From Alphaproteobacteria bacterium (GTDB lineage Bacteria > Pseudomonadota > Alphaproteobacteria > RF32 > CAG-239): a DNA stretch of 64,000 nt. The notes under the pieces were generated by a model. That model saw only the letters and a list, made by a program, of their open reading frames with translations, did no database searches and had not been told where the DNA came from. The stretch is from contig JAFTWG010000001.1 of the NCBI GenBank assembly GCA_017465405.1, positions 9,044-73,043 on the forward strand, read 5' to 3'. Below, one piece after another: positions 2,232-26,050 of this stretch (the stretch's first letter is position 1; each line of letters begins with the position of its first letter). A program made the position numbers and the translations under genes.

Positions 2232-2767
2232 TCAATTTCCTCCAATAACGGATTGACCTTATCTTTATCAGATAAAATTGCTTTATCGGTATCGATTTTC
2301 CAATCAATTCCCAACTTCGGATCATTGTAACGCAAACCGCCTTCAGAAGCTTTATTATATACATTGTCACATTTATACGCAAAAACAGCTGTTTCGGAAA
2401 GCACCGAAAATCCATGTCCGAAACCTCTCGGTATCATTAGCTGACGACGATTTTCAGCACTTAATTCAACAGCAACATGTTTTCCGAAAGTCGGAGAATC
2501 TTTGCGCAAATCTACTGCAACATCAAGAACCGTGCCTTCTAAAACACGCACTAATTTAGCTTGAGCATATTCACCTTTTTGAAAATGGATACCTCTGATT
2601 GTGCCATATTTAGATTTAGATTGATTATCCTGAATAAAATCATAATCAATCCCTTGCTCTTTCAGCTTCTCTTTATTGTAACTTTCAAAAAAATAACCGC
2701 GTTCATCTTCAAACACTTGTGGCTCAATAATGAACACTCCCTCAATTTCTGTTTTAGAAACCTTCAT
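2222..2767 (-). CDS. rfbC: dTDP-4-dehydrorhamnose 3,5-epimerase
   Basis: [31 protein letters not shown] motifs; start taken at MKVSKTE. Confidence 0.96.
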
Positions 2768-3638
2768 GATAGTCCTCATAAACTCGTTTTAAATATGCTT
2801 TATAATCAGTGCCATCCTTGAGCTCATCAATAATTTTTAAAAGTTGTTTATTATCAATAAAGCCTCTGCGATATGCAATTTCTTCAATACAAGCAATTTT
2901 CAAATCCTGACGTTTTTCAATAATTCCGATAAAGTTAGATGCTTCTAACAAAGATTGCGGAGTTCCGGCATCAAGCCAAGCATTTCCTCTTTTCATCGGC
3001 AAGACATTTAAGCGTCCTTCTTCCAAATACATTCTGTTCAAATCTGTAATTTCCAATTCACCACGAGCCGAAGGCTTTAAGTTACGGGCTTTCTCAACAA
3101 CGTCTGATTTATAGAAATACAAACCGACCACTGCATAATTTGACTTTGGTTGTTTGGGCTTTTCCTCAATGGAAACAGCTTTAAAATCTTTATCAAATTC
3201 AACCACACCAAATCTTTCCGGATCAGAAACGTGATAACCGAATACAGTACCTCCGGGGTTATTGGCAATTTCTTGACGAAACAATTTTAATTGTTCACCC
3301 ATATAGAAAATATTATCTCCCAAAATCAAGCACACATCGTCATTGCCGATAAAATCAGCTCCGATTGTAAATGCCTGCGCGATTCCTTTCGGTTCTTCTT
3401 GTACTCGATATTCCAAATTCATTCCCAAACGAGAACCATCTCCAAACAAACGTTCAATATTAGGTGTATCTTGCGGAGTTGAAATAATCAAAATATCTTT
3501 AATTCCGAACAACATCAAAGTTGAAAGCGGGTAATAAATCATCGGTTTGTCATAAACCGGCAAAAGTTGTTTACTGGTAATACTGGTCAAAGGATAAAGC
3601 CTTGAACCGCTACCGCCAGCCAGAATAATACCTTTCAT
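2754..3638 (-). CDS. rfbA: glucose-1-phosphate thymidylyltransferase
   Basis: [39 protein letters not shown] motifs. Confidence 0.97.
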
Positions 3639-3803
3639 TTTTTAATCCTCTATAGTTTAACTTTAATGGTTCCATAGTATAACGATACACATATAAATCA
3701 AGATTATATTTTTTCTATCAACAGTAGAATTACAACCAAAGTTTATACTTAAATTTAGCAAAAAAGATAATATCTATATTTTGAATAAATAAAGGATATA
3801 CAA

Positions 3804-4169
3804 ATGCAAAACCTTTCGGAAGAACAATACAAAATTTTACGCCACAAAGGAACCGAACCTGCATTTTCAGGCAAATATTATTTATTTAGCCAAGAAGGAA
3901 TTTATGTTTGTGCCGCATGCGGAAACCCTATTTTCACTTCAGAACAAAAATTTGATTGCGGTTGCGGATGGCCGAGTTTCGATTCGGCGCTTCCCGGAAG
4001 TGTAAAACTGTTACCGGATTACAGTTGCGGAACTAAAAGAACGGAAGTATGCTGTGCTAACTGTCACTCTCATCTGGGACACGTTTTTGACGATGGTCCG
4101 ACTTTAACCGGAACTCGTTTTTGCATCAACTCACTTGCTATGGATTTTCATCCGCGACAAAAACACTAA
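3804..4169 (+). CDS. msrB: peptide-methionine (R)-S-oxide reductase
   Basis: GTEPAFSG, CAAC, GWPSF, HLGHVFDDGP, RFCINS motifs. Confidence 0.96.
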   Translation: MQNLSEEQYKILRHKGTEPAFSGKYYLFSQEGIYVCAACGNPIFTSEQKFDCGCGWPSFDSALPGSVKLLPDYSCGTKRTEVCCANCHSHLGHVFDDGPTLTGTRFCINSLAMDFHPRQKH

Positions 4170-5080
4170 AGAAATGCTTTAGTTTCCTTTATAATTGTTT
4201 TTTGTAATAAATCACTACCATGTCCGATATCAGGAACAATAACCAGTTTGGAATTAGGCATAACCTTATGCAAGTCATAAGCTCCCTGAACAGGGCATAC
4301 AAAATCCAAACGATTATGAACAATCAAAGTCGGAATGTGCTTAATTTTTGCAATATTATCCATAATGTAGCCGTCTTCAAGCATAAATTCTTTTGCCGCA
4401 TAATTTATGTAAACCCGTGTAGAAGCTATATCATCTGCCGTGATTTCGCCAAATTCTAACGACGGATTTAGTTTTCCCAACACCCATTCATATCGACCAT
4501 ATAAACTTACGGCCTTAACCTGTTCCACCAAATTTTCCGAATTTATCATTTCGGCAAAAGCTTTCGCTATCGACTGATTATTTGGGGTTTCATTTTTCAT
4601 TTTTTCTAACATATCCGGATAAAACAAACCGCTCTGATTTTCAAGCCAATCGACACCGGCTTTGTCTGCCAAAAAAATCTGGCTAACAAAAAGTTTTTTT
4701 ACTCTTTTAGGATTTTTTATCGCAAATAATAAAGCCAAGGTTGACCCCCAAGAACCGCCTTTTACGATAACTTCGTCTTTTATATTTAAATATTCAAGCA
4801 GTCGTTCGGCATCTTCCAACAGTTTCTGAGTGGTATTATTTTTCATTTCTCCGGCAGGAAGCGACTTTCCTCCACCTCGTTGATCAAATAGTATCATACG
4901 ATACTTTTTACGGTCAAAACTGTATGTATGTTTAATCTTAGCCGAACCACCCGGACCTCCGTGAAATATAAGAACAGGCTCTCCTTTAGGATTTCCCGCT
5001 TCCATAAAATATACTTTATGTCCGTCTTTTTCGGGCAGATAGCCGGAATTGTAAATTTTAGGCTTAAACCAATTAAACAT
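4166..5080 (-). CDS. pip: prolyl aminopeptidase (proline iminopeptidase)
   Basis: HGGPG, FDQRG, GGSWG nucleophile elbow, D..CP and GH catalytic motifs. Confidence 0.85.
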   Translation of the reverse strand: MFNWFKPKIYNSGYLPEKDGHKVYFMEAGNPKGEPVLIFHGGPGGSAKIKHTYSFDRKKYRMILFDQRGGGKSLPAGEMKNNTTQKLLEDAERLLEYLNIKDEVIVKGGSWGSTLALLFAIKNPKRVKKLFVSQIFLADKAGVDWLENQSGLFYPDMLEKMKNETPNNQSIAKAFAEMINSENLVEQVKAVSLYGRYEWVLGKLNPSLEFGEITADDIASTRVYINYAAKEFMLEDGYIMDNIAKIKHIPTLIVHNRLDFVCPVQGAYDLHKVMPNSKLVIVPDIGHGSDLLQKTIIKETKAFL

Positions 5081-5081
5081 A

Positions 5082-5933
5082 TCACACCTCTTTTAACATT
5101 TTTATTTGTTCTTCTGTTTGTTGTTCTAACAGCAAAGGAATATCATTATCTATCATTATTTGCAACTGTCTCATCATTTTATCCATTCCGCAATGCCTGA
5201 AATTATAAGGATTTTTCTCGCCATTTACATCTTCATTAAAACAACAAATATATTCATATAAATCTTTAGCATTAAAATTATGATAATTATCGGCATTGTA
5301 CATATATAGCAGTAAAGTTTCGCACATACCGTTTTTTATGTCTTCTTCATTTTTACAAGGCGATAAAGGACCTTGAACATAGTCAATCCCTATTTTTTTA
5401 GCCCCATATTTTCTTTCTATCAAATCACATCTTTTTTTAGGAGACATACAGTCCACCAACGGATCAGGATTATCCTCATCATAGTTTATTTTATCCGGAT
5501 TGTTTGCTTCCCACAATATGGCTTTTAACGGTTCATTATTTATTTTTGAGTTTATATTTTGCAATCTTTTTTCTACATATTCGCATATTTGTTTTCCGCT
5601 TAACACTTTTGAATATTTTTTATCTCTGACAAGATATTCCACCAATCCGCAACTGCTTTTTCCGGCAATTCCTCCAACAGCAAATCCTATAACTTCGGGA
5701 TTTTCACTCATTAAATTATAGCCGAACGCCACATATACATGTTGTCCTTTTTCAACTCCTGAATTCAAATTTTCCAACCAATATTCGACTTTTTCCTGTT
5801 CATTCGGCAACGGAAAAGTTTGATTATACAAACCATCATGAATTTTTATCAACAAACTTGTAGCCGTATCAATTTGCTTTATATCTTTATTTTCAAATAT
5901 CTCGGTAAAATCTGCTATTTCAATATCAATCAT
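5082..5933 (-). CDS. hypothetical protein, possible GNAT-fold acetyltransferase
   Basis: VIGFAVG...LVEYLV and KR...YG...IDYVQ.PL patterns resemble an uncharacterised GNAT subfamily. Confidence 0.45.
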   Translation of the reverse strand: MIDIEIADFTEIFENKDIKQIDTATSLLIKIHDGLYNQTFPLPNEQEKVEYWLENLNSGVEKGQHVYVAFGYNLMSENPEVIGFAVGGIAGKSSCGLVEYLVRDKKYSKVLSGKQICEYVEKRLQNINSKINNEPLKAILWEANNPDKINYDEDNPDPLVDCMSPKKRCDLIERKYGAKKIGIDYVQGPLSPCKNEEDIKNGMCETLLLYMYNADNYHNFNAKDLYEYICCFNEDVNGEKNPYNFRHCGMDKMMRQLQIMIDNDIPLLLEQQTEEQIKMLKEV

Positions 5934-5965
5934 ACAATACCTTAATTTTAATTATACTTTGAAAA

Positions 5966-5993
5966 AGTTTAGCATAGCACTTTTTACTGTCAA
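5966..5993 (-). promoter_or_regulatory. sigma70-like promoter for the GNAT-like/pip genes
   Basis: Minus strand TTGACA-16 nt-TAAACT with TGn extension. Confidence 0.5.
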
Positions 5994-6060
5994 GCTTTAC
6001 CTTTTGTTTAGCATTTTTACCTAATATATAATAAATAGTAATAGCAAAGGATAACATCAA

Positions 6061-6858
6061 ATGAGATTAATTATAAATTCGGATTATGACAAATGCTCAC
6101 GTTGGGCTGCCGATTATGTTGCTTATAAAATTAAAGCAGCACGCCCGACTAAAGAAAAGCCTTTTGTCATGGCAATTCCGGCCGGAAGCTCCCCGCTCGG
6201 AATGTTCAAACTTTTGATTGAAATGTTCAAGAAAGGAAAAATTTCTTTTCAAAATGTAGTATTTTTCAATATGGTTGAATATGTCGGTTTACCAAACAAT
6301 GATATAAAAAGTTTTCACTATGCTTTATGGGAAAATTTTTTCCAACATATTGACGCAAGACAACAAAATATCCATTTATTGAACGGACAAGCTAAAGATT
6401 TTGCCAAAGAGTGTAAAAACTATGAAAAACTCATCCGTAGCTACGGAGGTATCGATTTACTTATCGGCGGAGTTGGCGAAGACGGACATATTGCTCTCAA
6501 TGAACCCGGTTCATCACTGGTTTCTCGCACCAGATTAAAAGCCCTAAATCGTAATACCTTACGTGCAAATGCTCGCTTCTTTAATGACGATGTAAACCAA
6601 GTTCCAAAAACTGCGGTTACAATCGGTATTGCAACCATTATGGATGCCAAAGAAGTTATGATTATAGCTTCCGGTGATAAAAAAGCAGAGGCTGTCCATT
6701 GTGCTGTTGAAGGAAGTGTTAACCACATGTGTCCTATCAGTATTTTACAAATGCACGAACATGCAATGATTGTTTGTGATGAAGATGCAACCTCAAAACT
6801 CAAAGCCGATACGGTGAGATATTTTAACGATAATGAAGAAACCAAATTCGGAAAATAG
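6061..6858 (+). CDS. nagB: glucosamine-6-phosphate deaminase homolog with the catalytic Asp substituted
   Basis: MRLII...PFV...GSSP, DGHIALNEPGSS, RFF..D...VPK motifs; the usual NMDEY reads NMVEY. Confidence 0.85.
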   Translation: MRLIINSDYDKCSRWAADYVAYKIKAARPTKEKPFVMAIPAGSSPLGMFKLLIEMFKKGKISFQNVVFFNMVEYVGLPNNDIKSFHYALWENFFQHIDARQQNIHLLNGQAKDFAKECKNYEKLIRSYGGIDLLIGGVGEDGHIALNEPGSSLVSRTRLKALNRNTLRANARFFNDDVNQVPKTAVTIGIATIMDAKEVMIIASGDKKAEAVHCAVEGSVNHMCPISILQMHEHAMIVCDEDATSKLKADTVRYFNDNEETKFGK

Positions 6859-6862
6859 CAGC

Positions 6863-6887
6863 AAGCCGTCATTTTGACGGCTTTTTT
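6863..6887 (+). terminator. intrinsic terminator after nagB
   Basis: AAGCCGTCA-ttt-TGACGGCTT followed by a T run. Confidence 0.85.
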
Positions 6888-6909
6888 CTTATTTTATTAA
6901 AGATAAAAC

Positions 6910-6938
6910 TTGAAAGCTGAAAATATTAATGCTACATT
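6910..6938 (+). promoter_or_regulatory. sigma70-like promoter
   Basis: TTGAAA-17 nt-TACATT with TGn extension, upstream of the 6982 ORF. Confidence 0.45.
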
Positions 6939-6981
6939 TATCTATATCTCTAGATTATTAACATATTAAAAACTGCAGTGT

Positions 6982-7365
6982 ATGATAAGTGTTTTTAGTG
7001 CACCGATGCTGGTTATGATGGGTATTGCCTATGTCACAATATCAGCAATTTTTTACATTATGTGGCGCAAGTATACTAAAAGCTGGACAGCAGTTTTTAT
7101 GGTATGCTCCGCGTTTAGTGTTTCTGTCGGAGTTATGTCGCAGATTATCGGCATTATAGCCATATTCAAGCCACATTTTCCGTTAGCGTTCCTCCCTGCT
7201 GATTTTCAGCTATATATGTTCGGAACGGCAGGTCTCTTGTTCATTATATGGTGGATACCTTGGATTATCTTTAATTGGGAAATTATCAAAAAAAACGCCC
7301 TAAAAGAACTTCAGGACATCAAAAAGAACAAAAGGAAAAAGAAGAAAAATAAGAAACCCGGTTAA
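6982..7365 (+). CDS. hypothetical membrane protein (about 3 TM segments, Lys-rich tail)
   Basis: Hydrophobic segments; flanked by its own promoter-like site and terminator. Confidence 0.7.
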   Translation: MISVFSAPMLVMMGIAYVTISAIFYIMWRKYTKSWTAVFMVCSAFSVSVGVMSQIIGIIAIFKPHFPLAFLPADFQLYMFGTAGLLFIIWWIPWIIFNWEIIKKNALKELQDIKKNKRKKKKNKKPG

Positions 7366-7385
7366 CTCTCGGGTTTCTTTTTTTT
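7351..7385 (+). terminator. intrinsic terminator
   Basis: AAGAAACCCG...CGGGTTTCTT followed by a T run. Confidence 0.8.
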
Positions 7386-7434
7386 ATTGCAAAAATGAGC
7401 ATTTGCATTATATTGAGCTCGGAGAAATTGATAA

Positions 7435-8478
7435 ATGGTAGAAGTAGTTACATTAGGCTGTCGAATAAACAGCTATGAATCTGAAATATTAAAAGAAAAA
7501 TTTGCCAAAGTTGATAACTTGGTAATAGTAAATACTTGTGCCGTTACTAAAGAAGCAGAAAGACAATGCAGACAGACAATTAGAAAACTACGTAAACAAA
7601 ATCCCGAAGCAAAAATTGTTGTGACCGGATGTGCGGCACAAGTCAATCCGCAAACATTTGCAAAAATGCCGGAGATTGATTTAATTCTCGGCAATAAAGA
7701 AAAAACAGCTATTGAAAAATATTTGCAAACTGATTTATCCGAAAAAACTATTGTCGGAGACATATTTAAATATGACGGATATGATGATTATTTGATTACC
7801 GGATTTGAAGGTCGTCAAAGAGCATTCGTGCAAGTACAACAAGGTTGCAATCATCGTTGTACATATTGTATTGTTCCTTTTGCCAGAGGAAACAATCGCT
7901 CTGTTCCGCAACAAAAAATTTTAGAACAAATAAAAACTCTGCTTGAGCAAGGTTTCAAAGAAATTTGCTTGACCGGAGTTGATGTTTGCTCATATCAACC
8001 GTCTTTTAGCGGTTTGGTTGCCGCTATTTTACAAACTTTCCCCGAAATTCCTTCTCTGCAATTCGGCTCACTAGACCCTGCTGCTATTGATGATGAATTT
8101 ATAAATTTAGTCGGAAAACATAAAAACATATTGCCTATGTTTCATTTATCAATTCAGTCCGGTGATAATCTTATATTAAAACGTATGCGACGTCGCCATT
8201 CTCGAGAAGATGTCATAAACTTATGCAACAAAATTCGTGCTGTAAGACCGGAAGCAACTTTCGGTGCTGATTTTATTTGCGGTTTTCCAACCGAAAAAGA
8301 AGAAAATTTTATTAATACATATAATTTGGTAGACGAAGCCGGAATTAGCCGTCTACACGTATTTCCATACTCGGAAAGACCGGGAACGCCTGCTGCATTG
8401 ATGCCACAAGTTGATGTTGAAGAACGTCGTGAACGAGCTAAGAGATTAAGAGAAAAAGGAGAAGTTATAAATGGCTAG
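7435..8478 (+). CDS. mtaB: tRNA threonylcarbamoyladenosine methylthiotransferase MtaB
   Basis: TLGCRIN, NTCAVT, VTGCAAQ, CNHRCTYC radical-SAM motif, HVFPYS; next to ftsY as in alphaproteobacteria. Confidence 0.88.
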   Translation: MVEVVTLGCRINSYESEILKEKFAKVDNLVIVNTCAVTKEAERQCRQTIRKLRKQNPEAKIVVTGCAAQVNPQTFAKMPEIDLILGNKEKTAIEKYLQTDLSEKTIVGDIFKYDGYDDYLITGFEGRQRAFVQVQQGCNHRCTYCIVPFARGNNRSVPQQKILEQIKTLLEQGFKEICLTGVDVCSYQPSFSGLVAAILQTFPEIPSLQFGSLDPAAIDDEFINLVGKHKNILPMFHLSIQSGDNLILKRMRRRHSREDVINLCNKIRAVRPEATFGADFICGFPTEKEENFINTYNLVDEAGISRLHVFPYSERPGTPAALMPQVDVEERRERAKRLREKGEVING

Positions 8479-9385
8479 TTGGTTAAACAAATTAGGACTG
8501 GGGCTTAAAAAATCTTCTGCTCGTTTAACCGACGGCATTAGTGGTATTTTCACTAAAAAGAGGTTGGATAGCCAAACTCTTGAAGAACTGGAAGAACTTT
8601 TGATTAGTGCGGATATGGGGGTTATGACCTCAGCCAAAATCATTTCTTCTTTCGGCTCAAAAAGACAAGATAAAGACATTAGCGAAAATGAAATTCGCCA
8701 ATTGTTAGCCGAAGAGATTGAAAAAATTATACTCCCTTGTGAAAAATCATTAGTTATAGATAGAAGCAAAAAACCTTTTGTAATTATGATGATTGGAGTT
8801 AACGGAGCAGGAAAAACCACAACAATAGGAAAGCTCACTCAAAAATTCAAAAATCAAGGTCTGAAAGTTTCACTCATTGCGGCTGACACATTTAGAGCTG
8901 CAGCAGTTGAGCAACTAAAAGTTTGGGGTGAACGCTCAAATGTTCGAGTATTTGCCGGAGAGAACGGCTGCGACAGTGCCGGACTTTGCTATGACGGATT
9001 AGCTCAAGCAATTAAAAATGATGATGACATTGTGTTTATTGATACCGCCGGACGATTGCAAAACAAAAACGGACTTATGGATGAACTAAAAAAAATAAAT
9101 CGTGTTATCAAAAAAATAATTCCTTCTGCCCCTCATTCGACAATTTTAACTTTAGATGCGACTAATGGTCAAAATGCTCTGTCGCAAGTAGAAATTTTTA
9201 GTCAAGCCACGGAAGTAAGCGGACTGATAATTACGAAACTAGATGGAACGGCTAAAGGCGGAATTTTAGCTGCAATTGCTGACAAACATCCGATTCCCGT
9301 TCATTATATCGGTATCGGTGAAGGTATCGATGATTTAGATGAATTTAAAGCCGCCGAATACGCTAAAAGTTTATTAAATATATAA
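8471..9385 (+). CDS. ftsY: signal recognition particle receptor
   Basis: GVNGAGKTT, DTFRAAA, DTAGR, TKLDGTAKGG motifs. Confidence 0.97.
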   Translation: MASWLNKLGLGLKKSSARLTDGISGIFTKKRLDSQTLEELEELLISADMGVMTSAKIISSFGSKRQDKDISENEIRQLLAEEIEKIILPCEKSLVIDRSKKPFVIMMIGVNGAGKTTTIGKLTQKFKNQGLKVSLIAADTFRAAAVEQLKVWGERSNVRVFAGENGCDSAGLCYDGLAQAIKNDDDIVFIDTAGRLQNKNGLMDELKKINRVIKKIIPSAPHSTILTLDATNGQNALSQVEIFSQATEVSGLIITKLDGTAKGGILAAIADKHPIPVHYIGIGEGIDDLDEFKAAEYAKSLLNI

Positions 9386-9452
9386 AAATATTGCTTAATA
9401 AATAAATTGTTGTATATTTGAGACAATATTCAAATTATCAACAAATTATCCT

Positions 9453-14770: not shown

Positions 14771-15499
14771 ATGCCGGAATATACAAACGACTATCTTCTT
14801 GATAAGCAAATAAAAATTTTTCAGCCGATAAACGGCTATCGTGCATCAAGCGATGCCGTTATGCTTTCCGGTGCTGTTAAAAACATTAAAAACGGCGAAA
14901 AAGTTTTGGATATGGGATCCGGAACCGGAGCTATTTCGCTCTGTTTGGCCCAACGCTTCCCCAATGCCGTTATCTCGGGAATAGAACTGCAAAGCGAACT
15001 GGCTGAATTGTCAAATTTAAGTGCAAAATCAAACAATTTTACAAACCTGTCATTTATAAATAGCGATTTAAGAACTCCGAATAGTCAATGGTATAATAAA
15101 TTTCATCATGTTATAACCAATCCTCCCTACTCTGACCATGATATGCCGTCCCCAAACGAAAGCAAATCACAAGCTCATAATTTTCAAAATTTTAATCTGA
15201 CCGAATGGTTACAATTAGGATTGAAATGCTTACGACCTAATGGTTGGATTTATACCATAAATCGTGCTGAAGCCATAGATGAAATTCTTTATGCTTTTCA
15301 TAAAAAAGTCGGCGACATTACAATTATTCCGTTTTATTCCAAAGTCGGACAAAACGCCAAACGAGTAATTGTCTGTGCACGCAAAAATTCAAAAGGACCG
15401 ACTAAAATTTTGTCGGGAATAACCATTCATGACAGCAACGGAAATTATACCCCGAAAGCCGAAGCAATTTTGCGTAACGGAAACAGCTTATTTGATTAG
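14771..15499 (+). CDS. N6-adenine methyltransferase, tRNA1(Val) TrmN6/YfiC-like
   Basis: Q...GYR...DA, VLDMGSGTG, NPPY, AKRVIV motifs. Confidence 0.85.
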   Translation: MPEYTNDYLLDKQIKIFQPINGYRASSDAVMLSGAVKNIKNGEKVLDMGSGTGAISLCLAQRFPNAVISGIELQSELAELSNLSAKSNNFTNLSFINSDLRTPNSQWYNKFHHVITNPPYSDHDMPSPNESKSQAHNFQNFNLTEWLQLGLKCLRPNGWIYTINRAEAIDEILYAFHKKVGDITIIPFYSKVGQNAKRVIVCARKNSKGPTKILSGITIHDSNGNYTPKAEAILRNGNSLFD

Positions 15500-16062
15500 T
15501 TACGACTGTAAAACAATAGATTGTTTTCTCCTTGATATTGTGCTCTTTGTAAAGCAATTATTGCTTCTTCAACTAAATTTTTAGCTTTTATATCCTGCCC
15601 TATATACACACTTACTCCCATACTGGTAAGAACTTTATCTCCCTTTTTGGTCGGAGTTCGAAAAATGGTACGAATTTTGCTTAATTCCAATTCTATTTCT
15701 TCTTGAGAATTTAAATTCGGCATCATAATCCAGAACGTATACCTGATTCCTCGTGCAATAGTATAATTAGCCGGAAGATACATCAACATTCTTTCTGCCA
15801 TTTCTTTTATTATTCCGTCAGGACTGTCAAAAAAATTATAATTATCGACATTAATACCCAAAACCACGATTTTATTTCGTTTTAATCGAATATCTTTATG
15901 GCTTTCATTATTTATGGCAGTTTGCAGACGGTCCTCAAACAAATAATAACTGACCAAACCGGTTAAATCATCATACATACATGATGTTATTTTTTCGTCA
16001 GGATCTCGTAATTCGTTTGAAATCCCCCGTCTGACAAAGCCATATCTGATTTCTTCTTCCAC
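15496..16062 (-). CDS. degenerate GGDEF-domain protein
   Basis: D.LTGL...LFEDRL, VD.YN, SMGVSVY, AL.RA motifs; active site reads RGIRYTF instead of R.GGDEF; GTG start. Confidence 0.7.
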   Translation of the reverse strand: MEEEIRYGFVRRGISNELRDPDEKITSCMYDDLTGLVSYYLFEDRLQTAINNESHKDIRLKRNKIVVLGINVDNYNFFDSPDGIIKEMAERMLMYLPANYTIARGIRYTFWIMMPNLNSQEEIELELSKIRTIFRTPTKKGDKVLTSMGVSVYIGQDIKAKNLVEEAIIALQRAQYQGENNLLFYSRN

Positions 16063-18138: not shown

Positions 18139-18420
18139 ATGAATCGTTTGAAAGCGCTGAAAATAGTTGTCTTTGTCTTTACATTTTTATTGGTTTTTGG
18201 TACTATCTCTCTGGTAGGGATATTGTTTAATCGTGCTAAAAACTATGATAAAGCAATATCTTCGGCAAATTTGGGCTTATCTGCCGGTGCAGAAATTAAG
18301 CAAATTGCTGCAGATGAGGGATTGCTCTATTTATTGGTATCTGTTCCTGAAAAAACAGATGAAATTATTATTTTCAACCCTGTAAAGGCTAAAATTGTAT
18401 CTAATATCACACTAAATTGA
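18139..18420 (+). CDS. small membrane-anchored hypothetical protein divergent from rluD
   Basis: N-terminal TM helix followed by a beta-rich tail; AAGGA RBS. Confidence 0.7.
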   Translation: MNRLKALKIVVFVFTFLLVFGTISLVGILFNRAKNYDKAISSANLGLSAGAEIKQIAADEGLLYLLVSVPEKTDEIIIFNPVKAKIVSNITLN

Positions 18421-18428
18421 GGATTGCG

Positions 18429-19349
18429 ATGAGTGAAAGCGACGACTTAATCAACAAATTAACAGACGATGTTTCAACTGACGGAAAGTTTGACTTTTCT
18501 TCGTCTTCTTCATCCGAAGATGACTTTAATGCTTTGCTTGATAATTTTATTCAATCAGAATTGGCAAACATTGAAGAGGAAAAAGAAACCACTCGTATTA
18601 TGCTTGATGAACCTAAACCGGAGCCTATTCCCGAAACTGCGAGTGATGAAGAAGTTGCCGATTCTTTAGACTTATCGGAACAAAAACTTTATATGGCATA
18701 TCGCAACTATGTCGAATCCATAGAAGCAATAGCTCGTGAACACGAATTACGAGTTCCGACATTTCATATCAAGGCTCAAACTCTATACCCCAAATACACA
18801 CCGGGACTTGGCAATCTTATCAGTATAGACGTTCTTCAAGGTTGGGACACAATGTTTGAAGCATTTCCTAATGATATTGTAAAGATACAACCTCACGCAT
18901 CAGATGAGGAACTCCTTGATTTTGCCGAACAGCATACCGATGAAAATTTACAGATGGCAGTTGTTTCTTATGTTGAAATTTTGTTTGAAATTGAAGGATG
19001 CGAAATTTCTTACGAAAAACGTATGTTAGAATTTGAGCATAAAAGAATCGAGCAAGAAATTATTGACGAACACCGCCGTAGAGCAGCAAGAGCTCGTAAA
19101 TATATTGATGCTTTGGAAAAGAAAAAATTTCCGATTAATGCCGAAAAACTGATTAACGGTTATTTCAAAGTTGCAAGCAAAGATCCTGAAGGCTCTTTTG
19201 AAGCTTTGACAAATAACCCGGCTATTTTTGCCCCGATTGAAGTGAACAAAATAAAACCTAAATTTTTCGGTTTAATTAAACCCTCTCCTCGTTCAGGTAT
19301 CATTATAAATAAAAAAATCGGAGAGTTTTTGAAAAAGTTTAAAGCATAA
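18429..19349 (+). CDS. hypothetical acidic protein, C-terminus weakly BID-like
   Basis: Long ORF with acidic N-terminus, coiled coil and basic C-terminus. Confidence 0.75.
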   Translation: MSESDDLINKLTDDVSTDGKFDFSSSSSSEDDFNALLDNFIQSELANIEEEKETTRIMLDEPKPEPIPETASDEEVADSLDLSEQKLYMAYRNYVESIEAIAREHELRVPTFHIKAQTLYPKYTPGLGNLISIDVLQGWDTMFEAFPNDIVKIQPHASDEELLDFAEQHTDENLQMAVVSYVEILFEIEGCEISYEKRMLEFEHKRIEQEIIDEHRRRAARARKYIDALEKKKFPINAEKLINGYFKVASKDPEGSFEALTNNPAIFAPIEVNKIKPKFFGLIKPSPRSGIIINKKIGEFLKKFKA

Positions 19350-19372: not shown

Positions 19373-19401
19373 TAGACAAAATAACAAAGTCATGATATTA
19401 T
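19373..19401 (+). promoter_or_regulatory. sigma70-like promoter for the VirD4 operon
   Basis: TAGACA-17 nt-TATTAT with TGn extension. Confidence 0.55.
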
Positions 19402-19439
19402 ATAATAAATAAATGTAGGATTTGAAAAGGAATAAGCAA

Positions 19440-21278
19440 ATGGCTGAGAACGATAGAACCACACAAGCTTCTGTACAAACAGAGCCCCCCTCCCCTGTTC
19501 AAACGACTGTGGCTCCAACAAATGTTGCGGATACAGTTCCTCCTCCAAATAATTTGAGTGTATTAACCTCTGATAACAGTGGACGAACAGATACTCGTGA
19601 AGATCCTACAAAAATGGTAGAAAGTGGGATAGAACAGCCACAGGCAGGTGAAAAAGTTGCAACTCCCAAAGCTAGCTCTTTATCTCTTGAAGAATTGCAA
19701 GAGAAACAACGTATGGGTTTGCTGACGCTTGATGAACAAAAAGCTCTAGAAGAAAAACAAAACCAACCCAATGATGGTTCGTTGCGAAAATTACCCGATA
19801 AAGATACAAGTGCTGAAGATCCGAAGAAAAAGGAATTTAAAGAAGGAGATGTTATTGCCTATATGTATGAAAAATGGCTTATTGCCGGAGCTTTGTGGTG
19901 TTCAGAAAAGGCAGAAAAATATTTCAACTACGGTTGCCATAAACTGCGTGAAGCACTAAGAGAGGGAAACGAAGCTAAAAAAGAAGAAATTAAAAAGATT
20001 CGTAGCGGAAAAACATACAAAAATGCAGAAAAAATAGAAGGGCTTTGGGAGAAAAAACACGAAGAAATATTAGCAAAAACACAAAAAACCGAAAAAGACA
20101 TTAATGATATCGGCGCAGCCATCAATGATGGAACTCTTTTTGACGATAACAACAAAGAATTGCTTAAAAAATACGAAAAAATGATTGGAGCCGATACTGA
20201 AGAAGGCAAAAAGAAATTAGAAGCTACCCGTTCGGCTTGCGAAACTCGGAAGGCTAATCCGGAAGATACAAACGCAGCTTTAGGAACAAAGAAAATCGCA
20301 GCAGAATTTGCTCGAGATGCAAAGGTAAATTTAGCATTTGATAATGAAATTGAAGTAGCAGCACTTAATTTGACTGCTGCAAATATGTTGACAAATATTT
20401 CATATCAACCTGATAAATATAAAGATATAGGAAAAAGCTTTGATATGGCATTTGATGCTAACGTTGCCACATTAAGCGGTATATCACAAAAAGACAGAGA
20501 ACACGCATTAGCAACTGTTGCTGATAAGGATAGAATACAGGCAGCAGCACAATATGCTGGAGTTTATGGAGCGGACATTGTAGCCCATACACAAAGACAA
20601 TGGGACAATAATTTCGAAACATTACGGAAAGTAAAAGAAGACTCATTTAATGGTATGCAACATGCTCTTAAAGATATCGGTAATGGACAAACAGCAGAAT
20701 TTGGTAAAGAACCAAATAAAAATGCAAAATTAGAATCCGCAATTAAAAGAGTTAGCGCAAAACAAGAAGTTGTAAACCCTGCACAACACGCTCCCACACA
20801 GCCTGCTCCGGCTAGGGTTGAGCCTGAAACATCTCCTATGGAACCAAAAACATTAGAAGAAGAAGCTATTGTTCAAGCTCAAGCAGATGAGGAGCTTGCT
20901 AAAAAACAACAACAAGTTAGCACTAACCCTAGAGCTGCAGACGTTGCAAGAAGAGAGCAAGACCATAAAGACAAAGGTCAAAAAATTAATCCGAGAATCG
21001 AAGAAATCAAAGCTCGTGCAATGGCTTCCAGACAAGCAAAACAAAGCGGAGTCGAATTTATGGTTGACTCAATGCTTGCAAACGGTAATCTAACGTCGGA
21101 ACAGCAAGAGGCTTTGTTAAACGCTGGTATTGCGGCAGAAAAAAGTGGTAAAGATGGCTCTACAGACCAGATTTTAAATAATATGAGAGAATCCGGACAG
21201 TTCAGTCAAGATCAAATTAAAACTGCTCGAGAAATAAACTATGCTTACGGATTAGCACAAAAGACAGGTAGAGAATAG
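19440..21278 (+). CDS. large hypothetical protein with Pro/Thr-rich disordered and coiled-coil regions
   Basis: 612 aa from the ATG after AAGGAA; no recognisable domain or signal peptide. Confidence 0.8.
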   Translation: MAENDRTTQASVQTEPPSPVQTTVAPTNVADTVPPPNNLSVLTSDNSGRTDTREDPTKMVESGIEQPQAGEKVATPKASSLSLEELQEKQRMGLLTLDEQKALEEKQNQPNDGSLRKLPDKDTSAEDPKKKEFKEGDVIAYMYEKWLIAGALWCSEKAEKYFNYGCHKLREALREGNEAKKEEIKKIRSGKTYKNAEKIEGLWEKKHEEILAKTQKTEKDINDIGAAINDGTLFDDNNKELLKKYEKMIGADTEEGKKKLEATRSACETRKANPEDTNAALGTKKIAAEFARDAKVNLAFDNEIEVAALNLTAANMLTNISYQPDKYKDIGKSFDMAFDANVATLSGISQKDREHALATVADKDRIQAAAQYAGVYGADIVAHTQRQWDNNFETLRKVKEDSFNGMQHALKDIGNGQTAEFGKEPNKNAKLESAIKRVSAKQEVVNPAQHAPTQPAPARVEPETSPMEPKTLEEEAIVQAQADEELAKKQQQVSTNPRAADVARREQDHKDKGQKINPRIEEIKARAMASRQAKQSGVEFMVDSMLANGNLTSEQQEALLNAGIAAEKSGKDGSTDQILNNMRESGQFSQDQIKTAREINYAYGLAQKTGRE

Positions 21279-21793
21279 TGAAAAAAATAAAAAAGTTTAT
21301 TCGTTTCTGTTTTATCGGAGTCGTATGGTCATTCCTTTATTTTGGAATAATTTCATGGCTGATGAAGTTGATATGGAAGTTCGATATTTTCGGCAAAAGA
21401 TATTGGATTAAAATATCTCGTTTTTGGCAAGATGGCGGTGTTATCGACACGGCACAAGAATATTTTTTCGTAATTGCCTTAATTACGATTATTCCTTTGT
21501 GGATATGGGGATGGCGTAAAGCAATGAAAGTATCGATAACTAAAATAATCTTTTTCCCGATATTCTGGTATCACAATTATCAAGAAAAGAAATATGCTCA
21601 ACTTCCGAAATCAATTACTTTGAAAAACATGGGAGCAAAAGTCGGAGCAAAGCAAACTCCTCAACAAATGATGGAAGAAATGATATCCAGCCGTATGCCC
21701 AAGCAAAAAGATAAAAAAGATTTGAATTCAAGCAAAATTCGTAGTAGTTTTGAAGAAAAGAATAAGACTTTTCATGAAAAAGTCGGTAAATAA
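21278..21793 (+). CDS. hypothetical membrane protein, paralog of the N-terminus of the next gene
   Basis: Trp-rich TM segments; shares W.FDI...W...W..VI...E..F...IPLW..GW with the 21806 protein. Confidence 0.75.
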   Translation: MKKIKKFIRFCFIGVVWSFLYFGIISWLMKLIWKFDIFGKRYWIKISRFWQDGGVIDTAQEYFFVIALITIIPLWIWGWRKAMKVSITKIIFFPIFWYHNYQEKKYAQLPKSITLKNMGAKVGAKQTPQQMMEEMISSRMPKQKDKKDLNSSKIRSSFEEKNKTFHEKVGK

Positions 21794-21805
21794 AAATAGG
21801 AGACT

Positions 21806-23212
21806 TTGTTGAAACCCTTACTCATACTTGCCAGAATCATAATTGTCGGTCTGTTATGGAGTGTTTTCTTTATGGAAAGCATTAGGGTTATCATGCTCCG
21901 TAACTGGCATTTTGATATTCTAAATCTGGAACACTGGAATATCGCTTGGAATTTATGGTCCGATTCTTGGGTTATATCAGAACCGAAAGAATGGGCTTTT
22001 GTTCTAATAATCATATCTTTTATTCCTTTGTGGTTTACAGGCTGGATTGCTTTGAGTATGGTTTCTTGGGGTAAAATGATATGGTTTGTGATAACCTTGC
22101 CATGGAGATTGTTCAAAACATTGTTCTATAAACCGGTAAAAATTATTGCAACTAATACCGGTGTTACTCCGATACGGAAAAAACGTTCATATAAAGAAAT
22201 TCGCCCCAGAGCAATCAGAAGCACTACTACAACATACACAGACCAAATTGAATCGGAACCGCAACAGATATTATCTGTACCGGCTCTTCCGCAAATTGTT
22301 ATTCCGCCATCAACTAACTCTGCAAACAAACCTGCAACACAAAAATTTGATCATGCTCTGTTCAAATTTGATGATGATGTTGATGATTTAGATTTTGATA
22401 TAGATGCTTTTGATGTTACTCCTGCTCCTAAACCGCAAGAGAACAATCGACGCAGAGAAAGATTAGATTACGATGAAGACGAGGCTCCGGCGCGTCCACG
22501 CAGCAAACCTCAAAATAGAGAACGCGACCATGACAGAGACAACGACAGACGTAACAGAAATGACAGAGATGTGTCTCGTCGCGAAAGACAAGACAGAAAT
22601 GAAAAATCATCAAGAAATGAACGTTCTGAACGAACAGAGAGACCAAATAGAGATTTTGAACGTCGCATAAAAGAAGATTTCAATAACAAAGAAAAACCGA
22701 CCACAAAACAACCGAGCGGTTCTTGTGTTGATATAATTAAGCAAAAAGGTTATGAAGTAATCAGCAGAGTTACCGTTAAAAATACTATTATTGATTATGT
22801 CGGGGTTTGTGCAAATAAATTGTGCCTGTGTATGCTTGACAGAGAACCGGGAGATTGGTTGGCTGATGAGGAACGTTTCAACGATGAAGAACCTCTATGG
22901 TTTTCTGAAAATTCACACCGAGTTTCTCCGGTTCGTAAAATTGACATAGCCAAAAGAATGATTGCAGATCGTCTGGAATCTGCTAATATAAAACTTGATA
23001 TAGAAGCATTTGTAATTATCCAAATCGGCAATATTATAAATGCTGAAGATATGTTTGAAATATGGGATTCTCTTGATATTCACGTAACCAGAATCGACAG
23101 AGGAACACCCAAAGAAATAAAACTGTTTGCCCGTACATTGCCTGATGCCGAAAAACCAATAGCTCCGGGTAAACTTGATAAACTTATTAATATAATGCGT
23201 AATATGGGATAA
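21806..23212 (+). CDS. membrane protein with charged linker and C-terminal NERD-like domain
   Basis: N-terminal TM module, R/D/E/N-rich linker, then IDYVGV...G.W...W...SP as in NERD-type PD-(D/E)XK folds. Confidence 0.65.
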   Translation: MLKPLLILARIIIVGLLWSVFFMESIRVIMLRNWHFDILNLEHWNIAWNLWSDSWVISEPKEWAFVLIIISFIPLWFTGWIALSMVSWGKMIWFVITLPWRLFKTLFYKPVKIIATNTGVTPIRKKRSYKEIRPRAIRSTTTTYTDQIESEPQQILSVPALPQIVIPPSTNSANKPATQKFDHALFKFDDDVDDLDFDIDAFDVTPAPKPQENNRRRERLDYDEDEAPARPRSKPQNRERDHDRDNDRRNRNDRDVSRRERQDRNEKSSRNERSERTERPNRDFERRIKEDFNNKEKPTTKQPSGSCVDIIKQKGYEVISRVTVKNTIIDYVGVCANKLCLCMLDREPGDWLADEERFNDEEPLWFSENSHRVSPVRKIDIAKRMIADRLESANIKLDIEAFVIIQIGNIINAEDMFEIWDSLDIHVTRIDRGTPKEIKLFARTLPDAEKPIAPGKLDKLINIMRNMG

Positions 23213-23218
23213 CATAAA

Positions 23219-25402
23219 ATGGGATTGCAAAAACGCGGAGAAGAATGGGAAGAATATGATCACGCGGTGCAATGGATGTCATTGACCGTAATCATTACTC
23301 TTGTAGCAACAATAGTTCTGGCAGCAATATCAATGCCTTTGGGCTATCTTATCGGCAATGGTGTTTCAAAAGAATCTATTGAAACCGTGGGCAAATTTAT
23401 GACCACTATTTTAAATGACCCCGGTTACTTATTTAAACAATACGGACGTTGGTTTAATCAAATATCTAACAGTCGCGGCGGTTTCAGTTTGGGATTGTGG
23501 CTACCGATTCTTCCAATATTAACCCTCCCCATAGGTTTAATAGTCGGAGCAATGAGTAACCCTTATCGTTTCCAATCCAATATTCACGGTTCAGGACGTT
23601 TGGCAACCTTAAAAGATATTAAAGCAATGAAATTGCTTGATGGTTTTTGCATGGTTGTCGGTAAGTATAAAGGTTATTACTTAAAACTTCCTGAAACATT
23701 ATCTACTCTATGTTGTGCACCTCCGGGAACAGGTAAAACCGTTGGAGTGGTTATTCCGACTATCTTTAACTCTAAAGGTATGAGTTTGGTTATTAACGAC
23801 CCGAAACCTGAATTATGTTACAGCACATCAGGAGCCAGAGCAAAAGAAGGTCCGGTATTCATTATTAACTGGGGTGCAGAAGACAAACCGGAACAAGGTT
23901 TATATTACCCGAGTTGGAATCCTCTTTCTCCAACCGCTTTGCCTGTTGCAGGTCCGGCTCGTGATATGTATATCGATTCTATGTGTAACATCTTGGTTGA
24001 AGATCCTAAAGGTGGTGCCGATCCTCACTGGTCTCAAACCGGTCGTGCGGCATTAACCGGATTTATTCACTTTATTTCTTCAAAATGCGAAAAAGCACGT
24101 GCAAATGACTATTTTATCGGACGTGTTTATGAAGGCAAACTCGATGCCGAAGACAAGCAGGTTCTTGAAGGATACTATGAAGAAATTAAAATGCATAACC
24201 CAGCCGCAGTAAGAGCTGTAGCAGATTTACGCAATAATAATCTTACGGTGGAAAACTATGTGCCTATCGGAACATGGGACTTATTACCGGAAAAATGGGT
24301 AGGTAGAGAACCCTGTATCGCTATGATTATGGAATGGTTAACCGAAGCTCAAATCAAACAAGGTCGTGAAATTCGTCGCCGTCTTGACGAAGGAGACCAA
24401 ATGGCGGCAATGGCTGATCCGATGCGTGATTTGCTCGAAGCTGCTATTGATGAAGCTAGAAAATATGGTTATACCCAACGTGCATATACCGAATTATCTT
24501 CATTAAGTAATATGCCGGATAAAGAACGCGGTTCCGTTATGTCCACAGCCTTTGCCGGTATCGGTGTGTTCAAAAACTCGGCAGTTGTAGCCAGAACCAG
24601 TTTTTCTGACTTGCAATTTAAAGATTTACGCGGAATGAAAGATCCTATTACCGGTGAATGGAAACCTATTTCGGTATATTTGTCAGTTAACCAAGTTGAT
24701 GCTCGTGCATTGGGTGTGATTAATGGTATTTTCATTGAATTGATGTCTTCATACCTTATTTCAAATCCGCCGAATTTTGTTAATGCCTCCGACGGTAAAA
24801 TGGGACCTTTCCCCTGTATGTTCGTATTGGACGAGTTTCCGCAAATGCCAAAACTTAAAGCGGTTATTGACGGACCGGCAGTGGGACGTGGTCAAAAAGT
24901 GTCGTATTTGCTTATCGGACAAGACTTGGGCCAAATCTCCGGTAAATATGGTAAAGATGACTTGGAAACAGTTATTTCTACCACTGCATGTAAAGTTATT
25001 TTGTCACAAAACAACGAGCAAACCGCTCAACGTTTCTCTAAAATGGTGGGCAATAAAACCGTTCAAACCTCATCTTACTCAAAACAAGAAGGTTTTGCTA
25101 ATAAGGGTGCAAATCCGTTTGCTAAAAACACTACATACTCATTGCAGGGTGTTTCGGTTATTACTGCTTCTCAACTATTGAGCTTGCCACAGTTAAAACA
25201 AGTTGTTTTGATGCAAAGTAATATCGATCACCCGATTATGGCCGATTCACCTCGTTGGTACTTAGATGCCAGAATGAAGGCTATGGCAAAACTTCCACCT
25301 GCTCCGAATGTTCCGGAATGGATTGTTGCCCAACGTGAAGACGTTAATGACAATATGATGGAAAAGCTTGGGCTTGGCGAAGATGATAGTCAGGCTTCAT
25401 AA
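23219..25402 (+). CDS. virD4: type IV secretion coupling protein, VirD4/TraG family
   Basis: N-terminal TMs, HGSGR.A, Walker A APPGTGKT, VIP, NDPKPE, WNPL, Walker B MFVLDEF, Q...Q....YG. Confidence 0.9.
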   Translation: MGLQKRGEEWEEYDHAVQWMSLTVIITLVATIVLAAISMPLGYLIGNGVSKESIETVGKFMTTILNDPGYLFKQYGRWFNQISNSRGGFSLGLWLPILPILTLPIGLIVGAMSNPYRFQSNIHGSGRLATLKDIKAMKLLDGFCMVVGKYKGYYLKLPETLSTLCCAPPGTGKTVGVVIPTIFNSKGMSLVINDPKPELCYSTSGARAKEGPVFIINWGAEDKPEQGLYYPSWNPLSPTALPVAGPARDMYIDSMCNILVEDPKGGADPHWSQTGRAALTGFIHFISSKCEKARANDYFIGRVYEGKLDAEDKQVLEGYYEEIKMHNPAAVRAVADLRNNNLTVENYVPIGTWDLLPEKWVGREPCIAMIMEWLTEAQIKQGREIRRRLDEGDQMAAMADPMRDLLEAAIDEARKYGYTQRAYTELSSLSNMPDKERGSVMSTAFAGIGVFKNSAVVARTSFSDLQFKDLRGMKDPITGEWKPISVYLSVNQVDARALGVINGIFIELMSSYLISNPPNFVNASDGKMGPFPCMFVLDEFPQMPKLKAVIDGPAVGRGQKVSYLLIGQDLGQISGKYGKDDLETVISTTACKVILSQNNEQTAQRFSKMVGNKTVQTSSYSKQEGFANKGANPFAKNTTYSLQGVSVITASQLLSLPQLKQVVLMQSNIDHPIMADSPRWYLDARMKAMAKLPPAPNVPEWIVAQREDVNDNMMEKLGLGEDDSQAS

Positions 25403-25404
25403 AG

Positions 25405-25686
25405 TTAATAATAAATATTTTTCAACAAATCCAACATCTTAATACATTTTGGATTGGTCAATGAATAATATACAGATTGAGCAATACGGCGGGTAGATAC
25501 TATATCCGCCGCTCTTAGTACCGCCAGATGTTGCGATAAGGCAGACTGGCTTATGCCCATGATTTTTTCCAATTCACCGACATTTTTTTCACCATTTTGC
25601 AAATTACAAACTATTTCCAACCGTTTTGCATTTCCGAGAGCCTTTAGCATTTCAGCACTTTTTTCAAATTTATTTAAATTTTCCAT
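25405..25686 (-). CDS. ArsR/SmtB-family transcriptional regulator
   Basis: LKALGN..RL.I, SQSALSQHLAVLR, RR.AQ..YY motifs; true start MENLNK. Confidence 0.9.
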   Translation of the reverse strand: MENLNKFEKSAEMLKALGNAKRLEIVCNLQNGEKNVGELEKIMGISQSALSQHLAVLRAADIVSTRRIAQSVYYSLTNPKCIKMLDLLKNIYY

Positions 25687-25798
25687 CCCTAAAATCTCCG
25701 TCAAATTAACAATTAGACATTTATAAAATAGACATTGATATTGAAATTTAAAGATTATGACCGTAATATATTTAAAAAAATTTTGGAGAATTATATAA

Positions 25799-26050
25799 AT
25801 GTCTGATGAAATAATCGAAAATTTGAGTTTTGAAGAAGCTCTAACCCGTTTAGAATCCTTGGTTAGAGAACTGGAAGCCGGAAAGATAAAACTTGATGAT
25901 GCCGTATCGGCATATGAACAAGCGGTAATCTTAAAAAAATTCTGCGAAAACAAATTAAATGAAGCAAAATTAAAAATCGAAAAAATAGAAACAGCTTCAA
26001 ACGGCAATCTGTCTTTAACCCCTTTAGATAAAATTGAAAATAATGAATAA
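25799..26050 (+). CDS. xseB: exodeoxyribonuclease VII small subunit
   Basis: LSFEEAL.RLE...LE.G...LD...YE...L...C...L..A. Confidence 0.95.
   Translation: MSDEIIENLSFEEALTRLESLVRELEAGKIKLDDAVSAYEQAVILKKFCENKLNEAKLKIEKIETASNGNLSLTPLDKIENNE

Follow-up and report, generated by a model that had tools for sequence, protein, structure and literature searches.

The rvh type IV secretion system (T4SS) of the Rickettsiales is laid out in scattered islets with a duplicated virB8 and multiple large VirB6-like genes (PMC2653234). A 2025 nomenclature review proposes coupling complexes with auxiliary "D4Aux" subunits as a class, and calls unclear both the site and manner of docking of VirD4, or of a larger complex, and the selection of substrates (PMC12857230). 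In this study, we describe a four-gene operon that ends in a VirD4-type type IV coupling protein (T4CP). It lies in a 64,000-nt stretch of DNA (hereafter the window) from an Alphaproteobacteria bacterium of the order RF32 (GenBank assembly GCA_017465405.1, contig JAFTWG010000001.1, positions 9,044 to 73,043). For this operon we report which genes it contains, how they are conserved and arranged in relatives, the fold class of one product, and the phylogeny and selection of the genes; within the order, the comparison covers 121 sampled genomes that represent 19 genera. The operon probably encodes the coupling complex of a scattered, rvh-like, P-type VirB/VirD4 T4SS with a new class of auxiliary subunit.

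The window genome (G000) comprises 1.64 Mb in 33 contigs with roughly 35% GC and is rated 100% complete; the window is part of contig C1. Four + strand genes at 19440-25402 were confirmed by open reading frame (ORF) calls, translations and junction sequences. The features of the operon are:

19373..19401, + strand: promoter-like site, TAGACA-17 nt-TATTAT with TG before the -10 element, in the 72-nt gap 5' of ORF1
19440..21278, + strand: ORF1, 612 aa from an ATG after AAGGA, or 618 aa from an upstream TTG at 19422
21278..21793, + strand: ORF2, 171 aa, a two-helix Trp-rich membrane hairpin with a basic tail
21806..23212, + strand: ORF3, a 468-aa membrane protein with a C-terminal NERD-like domain at nt 22712-23209
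23219..25402, + strand: VirD4-type T4CP, 727 aa, with Pfam matches and Walker A and B motifs

ORF2 shares one base with the stop codon of ORF1 (TAGTG), and gaps of 12 nt (ORF2-ORF3) and 6 nt (ORF3-VirD4) follow, exactly the tight spacing given in a first-pass annotation of the window. That annotation had also named a promoter-like site. It is the best + strand match (10 of 12 consensus positions) and is well placed in the intergenic gap, but 26 such sites occur in the region, and shuffled sequence yields 24.6 +/- 4.5; since the count equals the shuffle expectation, the match alone is at chance level and only its position favours it. As annotated, two of the genes encode paralogous Trp-rich membrane proteins (ORF2 and ORF3, described below) and one a VirD4/TraG ATPase with intact Walker motifs, and no relaxase, integrase or VirB gene is found among the 10 flanking ORFs scanned. 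The housekeeping flanks are likewise present: rluD and an rpoH-like sigma factor gene precede the operon, and xseB and ispA follow it, except that a minus-strand ArsR-type gene, overlooked at first, intervenes between VirD4 and xseB.

The coupling protein matches three Pfam models: PF02534 (4.3e-59, 201 bits, cut-off 20.1), PF12696 (1.6e-23, 83.4 bits, cut-off 22) and PF10412 (2.3e-18, 66.7 bits, cut-off 20.5). Walker A (APPGTGKT, residues 167-174) and Walker B (MFVLDE, residues 534-539) both fall in invariant columns of an alignment of 19 orthologues. Hydrophobic segments at 15-47 and 87-115 form the two-transmembrane (TM) N-terminal anchor, and the C-terminal tail is acidic. All 10 T4CP models among the NCBIfam VirD4/TraG equivalogs stayed below their cut-offs (best VirD4 model 120.9 bits against 728), and among PDB chains VirD4 had no sequence match at 0.001. 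Close homologues carry the name "MAG: Alphaproteobacteria bacterium", MAG standing for metagenome-assembled genome, and the best plasmid T4CPs are 32-36% identical. In a whole-genome search, the window VirD4 is the sole T4CP of G000. Relaxases of the five families searched (PF03432, PF08751, PF03389, PF01076 and PF07514) gave no match in this genome.

The three upstream genes have no match to any Pfam or NCBIfam family. ORF2 and ORF3 are paralogous in their N-termini (33% identity over 93 aa, E 7e-14), possess two hydrophobic segments each and contain 5.3% and 3.2% Trp, respectively. In ORF3, residues 1-117 are modelled as a two-helix membrane hairpin with a Trp-rich loop and a juxtamembrane helix (pLDDT 80-92). 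The linker that follows, to about residue 300, is disordered and highly charged, with 37 K+R and 39 D+E in 171 residues; conserved inside this variable linker is an acidic FD-rich motif, FDHSLFxFDDxDDDFDFDFD, at about 181-205. The C-terminal domain (303-468) shows 68% mean column identity across the order. The full-length model has a mean pLDDT of 66 with a disordered middle, and its fold search gave low query-normalised scores; modelled alone from 39 sequences, the C-terminal domain reached a pLDDT of 92.9 and a pTM of 0.88.

The best fold matches of this domain in the PDB, though weak, are nearly all PD-(D/E)xK nucleases (SfsA, AF1548, NucS/EndoMS, XisH, Hjc, restriction enzymes). Concerning families, 26 of 30 Atlas feature matches are NERD clusters (score 0.90), and the Pfam NERD model is matched at E <= 1 by five of 12 ORF3 relatives. 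The strongest of these matches has an E of 2e-6 and passes the gathering score; P0145, a relative, reaches 28.7 bits where 22.1 are required. Taken together, model and matches suggest a divergent NERD-like domain of restriction-endonuclease fold. A profile of the domain searched against PDB chains gave only OXA-1 at 0.0046 and one match at 1.2, both of which we treat as chance; a solved structure is thus at hand for no sequence relative of ORF3. ORF3 was also considered as a homologue of DotM (IcmP) and rejected as such: profile matches in the PDB stand at chance level, and no Dot/Icm protein occurs among the roughly 50 best fold matches. Predicted as a complex, the ORF3 C-terminal domain and VirD4 (727 aa, from an alignment of 19 rows) scored 0.00, which is no answer and speaks neither for nor against binding.

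Residue conservation in the domain was counted across 39 domains. The positions of the window protein that we take to be equivalent to the catalytic triad, by an alignment to the NERD consensus, are D330, D345 and E347, so a D...(D/E)xK triad is not present. D330 is kept in 33 of 39 domains and D345 in 36; at position 347, where the usual catalytic Lys would stand, Glu is found in 28 domains, Lys in three and Gln in three. W351, W365, S374, P375, N412 and W420 are kept in all 39, and the segment GDWLADEE..F.N.E.PLWFSE..HR.SPV is 92-100% kept, above the active-site positions. Because the catalytic Lys is replaced by Glu and conservation peaks in this acidic-aromatic segment rather than in the triad, we infer that the domain probably no longer cuts DNA; judged from sequence, a binding or regulatory role would be favoured over catalysis.

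The same domain invites a second reading, which we hold to be unlikely: that the operon encodes a DNA-handling machine. In it, the NERD-like domain on its tether would bind DNA or act as a nuclease or nickase and, together with VirD4, a relative of DNA translocases, would process chromosomal or incoming DNA for relaxase-independent release or uptake through the VirB channel. The PD-(D/E)xK fold and NERD affinity, the widely retained D330 and D345, the three domains with a canonical DxK, the basic residues of the linker and the lack of a relaxase of the five families that could supply DNA substrates would all fit such a machine. Conversely, Glu predominates at position 347, the active-site positions are less conserved than the acidic-aromatic segment, and the acidic residues of the linker match the basic ones. 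Moreover, relatives with canonical virB11-virD4 linkage do without ORF3, and evidence of DNA uptake or an oriT is lacking. Slightly less likely again is the more specific proposal that ORF3 and VirD4 form a relaxase-independent DNA-processing gate, by which a core chromosomal T4SS exports or imports DNA or nucleoprotein without a conjugative element. If true, genes would flow through gut communities by a new route, and type IV secretion would have a new way of priming its substrates.

ORF2 keeps the hairpin only, without the nuclease-like domain. The upstream paralogue still matches the C-terminal domain in three genomes (G122, G175, G227), and in two others (G448 and G138) a full-length paralogous ORF of 371-381 aa lies upstream; since these relatives retain the domain or the full length, ORF2 of the order is best read, on sequence grounds, as a truncated ORF3 paralogue. 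Second full-length ORF3-like genes, with hairpin and NERD-like domain, were also seen away from either VirD4 copy in G322, G143, G452, G333, G158 and G461 (e.g. loci L074, L075 and L078). ORF1 is hydrophilic and far less constrained. An ORF of 452-714 aa occupies its position in all 18 diverse loci compared within the order, with a cross-order identity of 12-21%. It has a short conserved motif, FKExDIIxYMYxxW, with an invariant D137. The C-terminus is usually Arg, or Arg plus one or two residues; that this might be a secretion signal is offered as an idea only. ORF1 is lineage-restricted, and possibly a substrate, plug or regulator of the coupling complex.

The channel to which the coupling protein would belong is encoded elsewhere in the same genome. 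Contig C24 carries VirB2 (PF04956), VirB4 (PF03135), two copies of VirB8 (PF04335), VirB9 (PF03524) with a SPOR domain, VirB10 (PF03743) and VirB11 (PF00437), together with four ORFs without known family within the virB cluster. Apart from both VirD4 and the virB cluster, contig C27 carries, at about 2600-9400 (L178-L180), three tandem VirB6/TrbL-like genes whose frames measure 855, 435 and 986 aa. All matches to VirB4, B6, B8, B9, B10 and B11 exceed the Pfam cut-offs. The T4SS genes of G000 are thus spread over C1, C24 and C27. VirB4 is found in all 121 genomes of the order, at 66-98% identity. In the class-level relative G138, the VirD4 operon lies 6 kb from a cluster of virB8, virB8, virB9, a repeat protein gene and virB10. 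Within the order, the VirD4 and virB loci are far apart where they share a contig, for example by about 155 kb in G038. The first-pass annotation had called VirD4 stand-alone and had suggested a whole-genome search for VirB genes and relaxases. Relaxases of the five families did not appear in it, but VirB genes did, on other contigs. Because a VirB-type channel set is present on C24 and C27, VirD4 is neither an orphan nor stand-alone, and the scattering of T4SS genes known from Rickettsiales, mentioned in the same annotation, is the better description.

Several further features of C24 were noted in passing. The cluster (L010, 8850-18049) encodes a 1624-aa protein and a 1440-aa VirB10, both with many beta-flower/RHS-like repeats (PF21785, PF21784, DUF3659). 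A VirB10 with such a long repeat-bearing N-terminal part is unusual, and this part may be surface-exposed. Divergent minus-strand genes just upstream of virB2 (L004, 467-8779) encode a T2SSE-family ATPase (549-aa frame), a secretin (PF00263) and a TcpQ-like protein (PF10671), and resemble a portion of either a type II secretion-like system or a pilus of type IVb or Tad-like kind.

A repurposed translocase that works alone, with VirD4 and ORF1 to ORF3 acting without a VirB channel, for example as an inner-membrane pump for DNA or protein, is decidedly unlikely. For this reading speak the private partners outside known T4SS families, the lack of linkage between operon and virB genes in G000 (C1 versus C24 and C27), the long distance in G038, and two 0.9-Mb genomes of family f78 with a 47%-identical VirD4 near rpoH and neither ORF3 nor an adjacent virB gene. 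Against it, VirB4 is present throughout the order and diverges in parallel with VirD4 (66-98% versus 65-98%), the virB cluster is close to the operon in G138, and virB10, virB11 and virD4 adjoin in neighbouring clades. In addition, a stand-alone VirD4 would leave a full channel set without a coupling protein, because the genome has no T4CP besides the window VirD4.

A coupling-complex operon of a scattered T4SS, the reading we prefer, also agrees with its distribution. Within the order, a T4CP match is found in 120 of 121 genomes, and 119 of these matches are of orthologue grade (62-98%). ORF3, which by coordinates always lies directly upstream of VirD4, occurs in the same 119 genomes. Assembly gaps seem to account for the two absences: the G006 contig breaks off inside the operon, shortly after the ORF1 homologue begins, and in G011 even rluD was not found. 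The order ORF1-like, ORF2, ORF3, VirD4 holds in 18 of 18 diverse loci, and rluD and rpoH adjoin in 16; the downstream flank (ArsR, ispA) is conserved only within the genus. A second T4CP of about 30% identity occurs in about half of the order genomes and not in G000. Second T4CPs of 30-42% identity were seen in the order and in related families (e.g. L181-L192) and may be parts of mobile elements.

For the wider distribution, a profile built on the C-terminal domain of ORF3 retrieved 367 representative proteins at E <= 0.001 among 1.84 billion. The nearer relatives (330-540 aa) have the whole architecture, and the named ones all come from "Alphaproteobacteria bacterium" MAGs. Among 401 class-level genomes, 24 carry the domain, 20 of them outside the window's own family, in 12 families and in genomes of 0.9-2.5 Mb. 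VirD4 follows ORF3 directly in 17 of these 20; of the remaining three, one has ORF3 at a contig end and two have VirD4 elsewhere, and all 20 possess VirD4 at 45-65% identity. In a one-genome-per-species collection, ORF3 relatives were found in 387 stretches; the 80 loci kept from these are all gut or rumen MAGs from people and farm animals, mostly of the order itself.

Thirteen further class-level genomes have a strong VirD4 match and no ORF3 domain. In four of them, from four families and including one labelled as a Holosporales MAG, virD4 comes after virB11; three of the four also have virB10 upstream, and two have virB8 or virB9 there. Two 0.9-Mb genomes of family f78 (G364 and G196; loci L172 and L173) show the 47%-identical VirD4 a few kb from rpoH, with neither an ORF3-like gene nor an adjacent virB gene; these loci may represent a further-reduced state of the same arrangement.

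Distant relatives of the ORF3 domain occur in fusions with AAA ATPases or with TPR-Roc-COR-TIR architectures, which are often seen in defence proteins. It is nevertheless very improbable that the NERD-like proteins are a defence or conflict module, that is, anti-phage or toxin-like effectors that merely adjoin VirD4, because over 13 families the pair is strictly adjacent, is inherited vertically and is under strong purifying selection, quite unlike patchy defence islands.

For the question of mobility, a T4CP tree was built from 54 proteins; locus L184, with no usable ORF, was left out. All but one of 30 ORF3-linked VirD4 proteins group in a single clade (SH-aLRT 99), within which the order is nested (99). 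The second T4CPs (100), the three megaplasmid VirD4s and the group with canonical virB11-virD4 linkage (96) stand separately; the VirD4 of G151, a 63%-complete genome, is not placed by the tree. Selection was compared gene by gene against relatives with a 98%-identical VirD4, the ratios being rough because dS is high (0.6-1.6). VirD4 gave dN/dS values of 0.013-0.014, ORF2 (94% identical) 0.025-0.044, ORF3 (92-93%) 0.05-0.07 and ORF1 (62-65%) 0.17-0.21. ORF1 evolves about 20 times faster than VirD4. Distribution is not patchy, and VirD4 is not nested among T4CPs of mobile elements. These data support an operon that is chromosomally fixed and vertically inherited, and not a plasmid or ICE (integrated conjugative element) remnant. 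The first-pass annotation had likewise proposed a chromosomally fixed T4CP operon with undescribed membrane partners, and this is supported: VirD4 falls outside the groups of plasmid T4CPs and of second T4CPs, occurs nearly throughout the order sample in conserved synteny, coincides with no relaxase of the five families, and is accompanied in relatives by the upstream genes. T4CPs usually travel on mobile elements, and the second T4CP in half of the order genomes may do so, but a decayed remnant of an integrated conjugative element is extremely improbable for an operon that is near-universal, fixed in position, under strong constraint at VirD4, in a clade apart from plasmid and second T4CPs, free of relaxases of the five families, and of a GC content (0.367-0.389) inside the window range (0.323-0.397, 2-kb profile).

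We thus return to a coupling complex with auxiliary subunits, which might work as follows. The T4SS genes, scattered over at least three loci, are core to the order, whose gut and rumen members have genomes of 1.3-1.9 Mb. The VirD4 ATPase would take substrates and pass them to the VirB channel encoded elsewhere. In the inner membrane, the ORF3 hairpin and its Trp-rich loop would lie next to the anchor of VirD4, and the charged, disordered tether of about 170 residues would keep the cytoplasmic NERD-like domain near the ATPase. There, as an adaptor, the domain could dock or gate substrates or regulate the ATPase, in the role that DotM has towards DotL and without kinship to DotM. ORF2, as the hairpin-only paralogue, would probably join the membrane complex too, so that both proteins are expected to bind VirD4 physically; ORF1 could enter as substrate, plug or regulator. 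Protein rather than DNA would be the default cargo, since relaxases of the five families are lacking and the small genomes look host-associated.

Some observations weigh against this picture. The fold matches of the ORF3 C-terminal domain are weak, with a best E of 2.8e-3 at a probability of 0.97, none at or below 0.001, probabilities up to 0.98 overall and query-normalised TM-scores of 0.3-0.4, and the window ORF3 itself is below the reach of the Pfam NERD model (PF08378). The acidic PD-(D/E)xK residues are mostly retained, and a canonical DxK persists in three of 39 relatives. G279 and G489 carry ORF3 with VirD4 on another contig. The relaxase search covered five Pfam families, in a genome of 33 contigs. 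VirB3 is assigned from position only, as a 96-aa ORF without family match before VirB4, and VirB1, VirB5 and VirB7, for which no genome-wide search was made, were not identified in G000.

The operon is surrounded in the window by the following genes:

15496-16062, - strand: GGDEF protein of 188 aa with little beyond the GGDEF domain (PF00990, 1.8e-11), between a methyltransferase gene and rpoH
18139-18420, + strand: small DUF6476 membrane protein, upstream neighbour
18417-19349, + strand: 310-aa protein without known family, with an acidic N-terminus, upstream neighbour
25405-26007, - strand: ArsR-type helix-turn-helix (HTH) ORF, 200 aa as the longest ORF, HTH at residues 128-171, between VirD4 and xseB
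25799-26050, + strand: xseB (PF02609, 2.5e-17), in the 3' flank

The 5' part of the ArsR-type ORF overlaps xseB; the ORF call probably overstates the length of the regulator, whose gene is convergent to VirD4. The DUF6476 protein and the 310-aa protein probably belong to the rluD neighbourhood and not to the coupling module. The gene for the latter adjoins the operon in 16 of 18 order loci and, among class-level relatives, stands beside the module in G175 only; the protein is under very strong purifying selection (dN/dS 0.007-0.015). Metatranscriptome contigs from three runs of one study cover parts of ORF1 and VirD4 and none of ORF2 or ORF3; strand and level are not readable from them, and carry-over of DNA is possible.

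None of these bacteria has been cultured, and yet they are common in the guts of people and farm animals, since ORF3 relatives occur in 387 species-level stretches and the 80 loci mentioned above are all gut or rumen MAGs. Because the T4SS is core to a whole order of small genomes, it is likely central to their lifestyle, perhaps one of attaching to or feeding on host, protist or bacterial cells. A literature search on RF32 together with type IV secretion in Alphaproteobacteria found no paper, and the available part of a paper on reduced-genome gut lineages makes no mention of "secretion" (PMC12306168). Nor did any of the papers listed by a search describe a NERD domain tied to a coupling protein or to type IV secretion. 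The new element is the ORF3 family, previously undescribed as a T4SS auxiliary subunit, in a T4SS of known P-type. The coupling complex would include an auxiliary-subunit family that is absent from the model systems. The ORF3-VirD4 gene pair, kept over 13 families, offers a compact case for studying substrate selection and docking, and for asking whether a nuclease fold became a receptor.

The closest described relatives are the VirB/VirD4 T4SSs of P-type (MPF-T), with which the present system shares the VirD4 domain set, the two-TM anchor, the Walker motifs and homologues of VirB2, B4, B6, B8, B9, B10 and B11 in G000. The nearest plasmid VirD4s are those of megaplasmids of Erythrobacter aureus, Sphingosinicella sp. 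and Microvirga sp. On the Erythrobacter plasmid, virD4 follows virB11 in an ordinary virB4-to-virD4 operon without an ORF3-like gene. Unlike these plasmid systems, the window VirD4 is unlinked to channel genes, is core-chromosomal, has private partners and is accompanied by no relaxase of the five families.

With rvh, it shares a vertically inherited chromosomal P-type T4SS in small-genome Alphaproteobacteria, an organisation in islets, two virB8 genes and a tandem array of large VirB6-like genes; as in rvh, no virB5 was recognised in G000, where no genome-wide search was aimed at it. In contrast to rvh, in which virB4 and virB9 are duplicated, G000 has one VirB4 match, its VirB10 measures 1440 aa with beta-flower repeats, and VirD4 stands in an operon of its own with ORF1 to ORF3, whereas rvhD4 is placed after rvhB11. 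The likeness to rvh is one of layout.

The DotL-DotM pair of the Legionella Dot/Icm system resembles the proposed complex in combining a coupling ATPase with membrane-anchored auxiliary subunits that help to recruit substrates. ORF3, too, joins an N-terminal membrane anchor to a cytoplasmic globular domain, and dotM lies directly upstream of dotL, as ORF3 does of VirD4. The window VirD4, however, is of type IVA, and the ORF3 domain model matches nuclease folds; the likeness to DotM is an analogy and not membership. With the NERD family (PF08378), finally, ORF3 shares the fold class and the NERD matches of its relatives; it differs in carrying Glu in place of the (D/E)xK lysine, in its membrane-hairpin tether and in having the gene of a T4CP as its neighbour.

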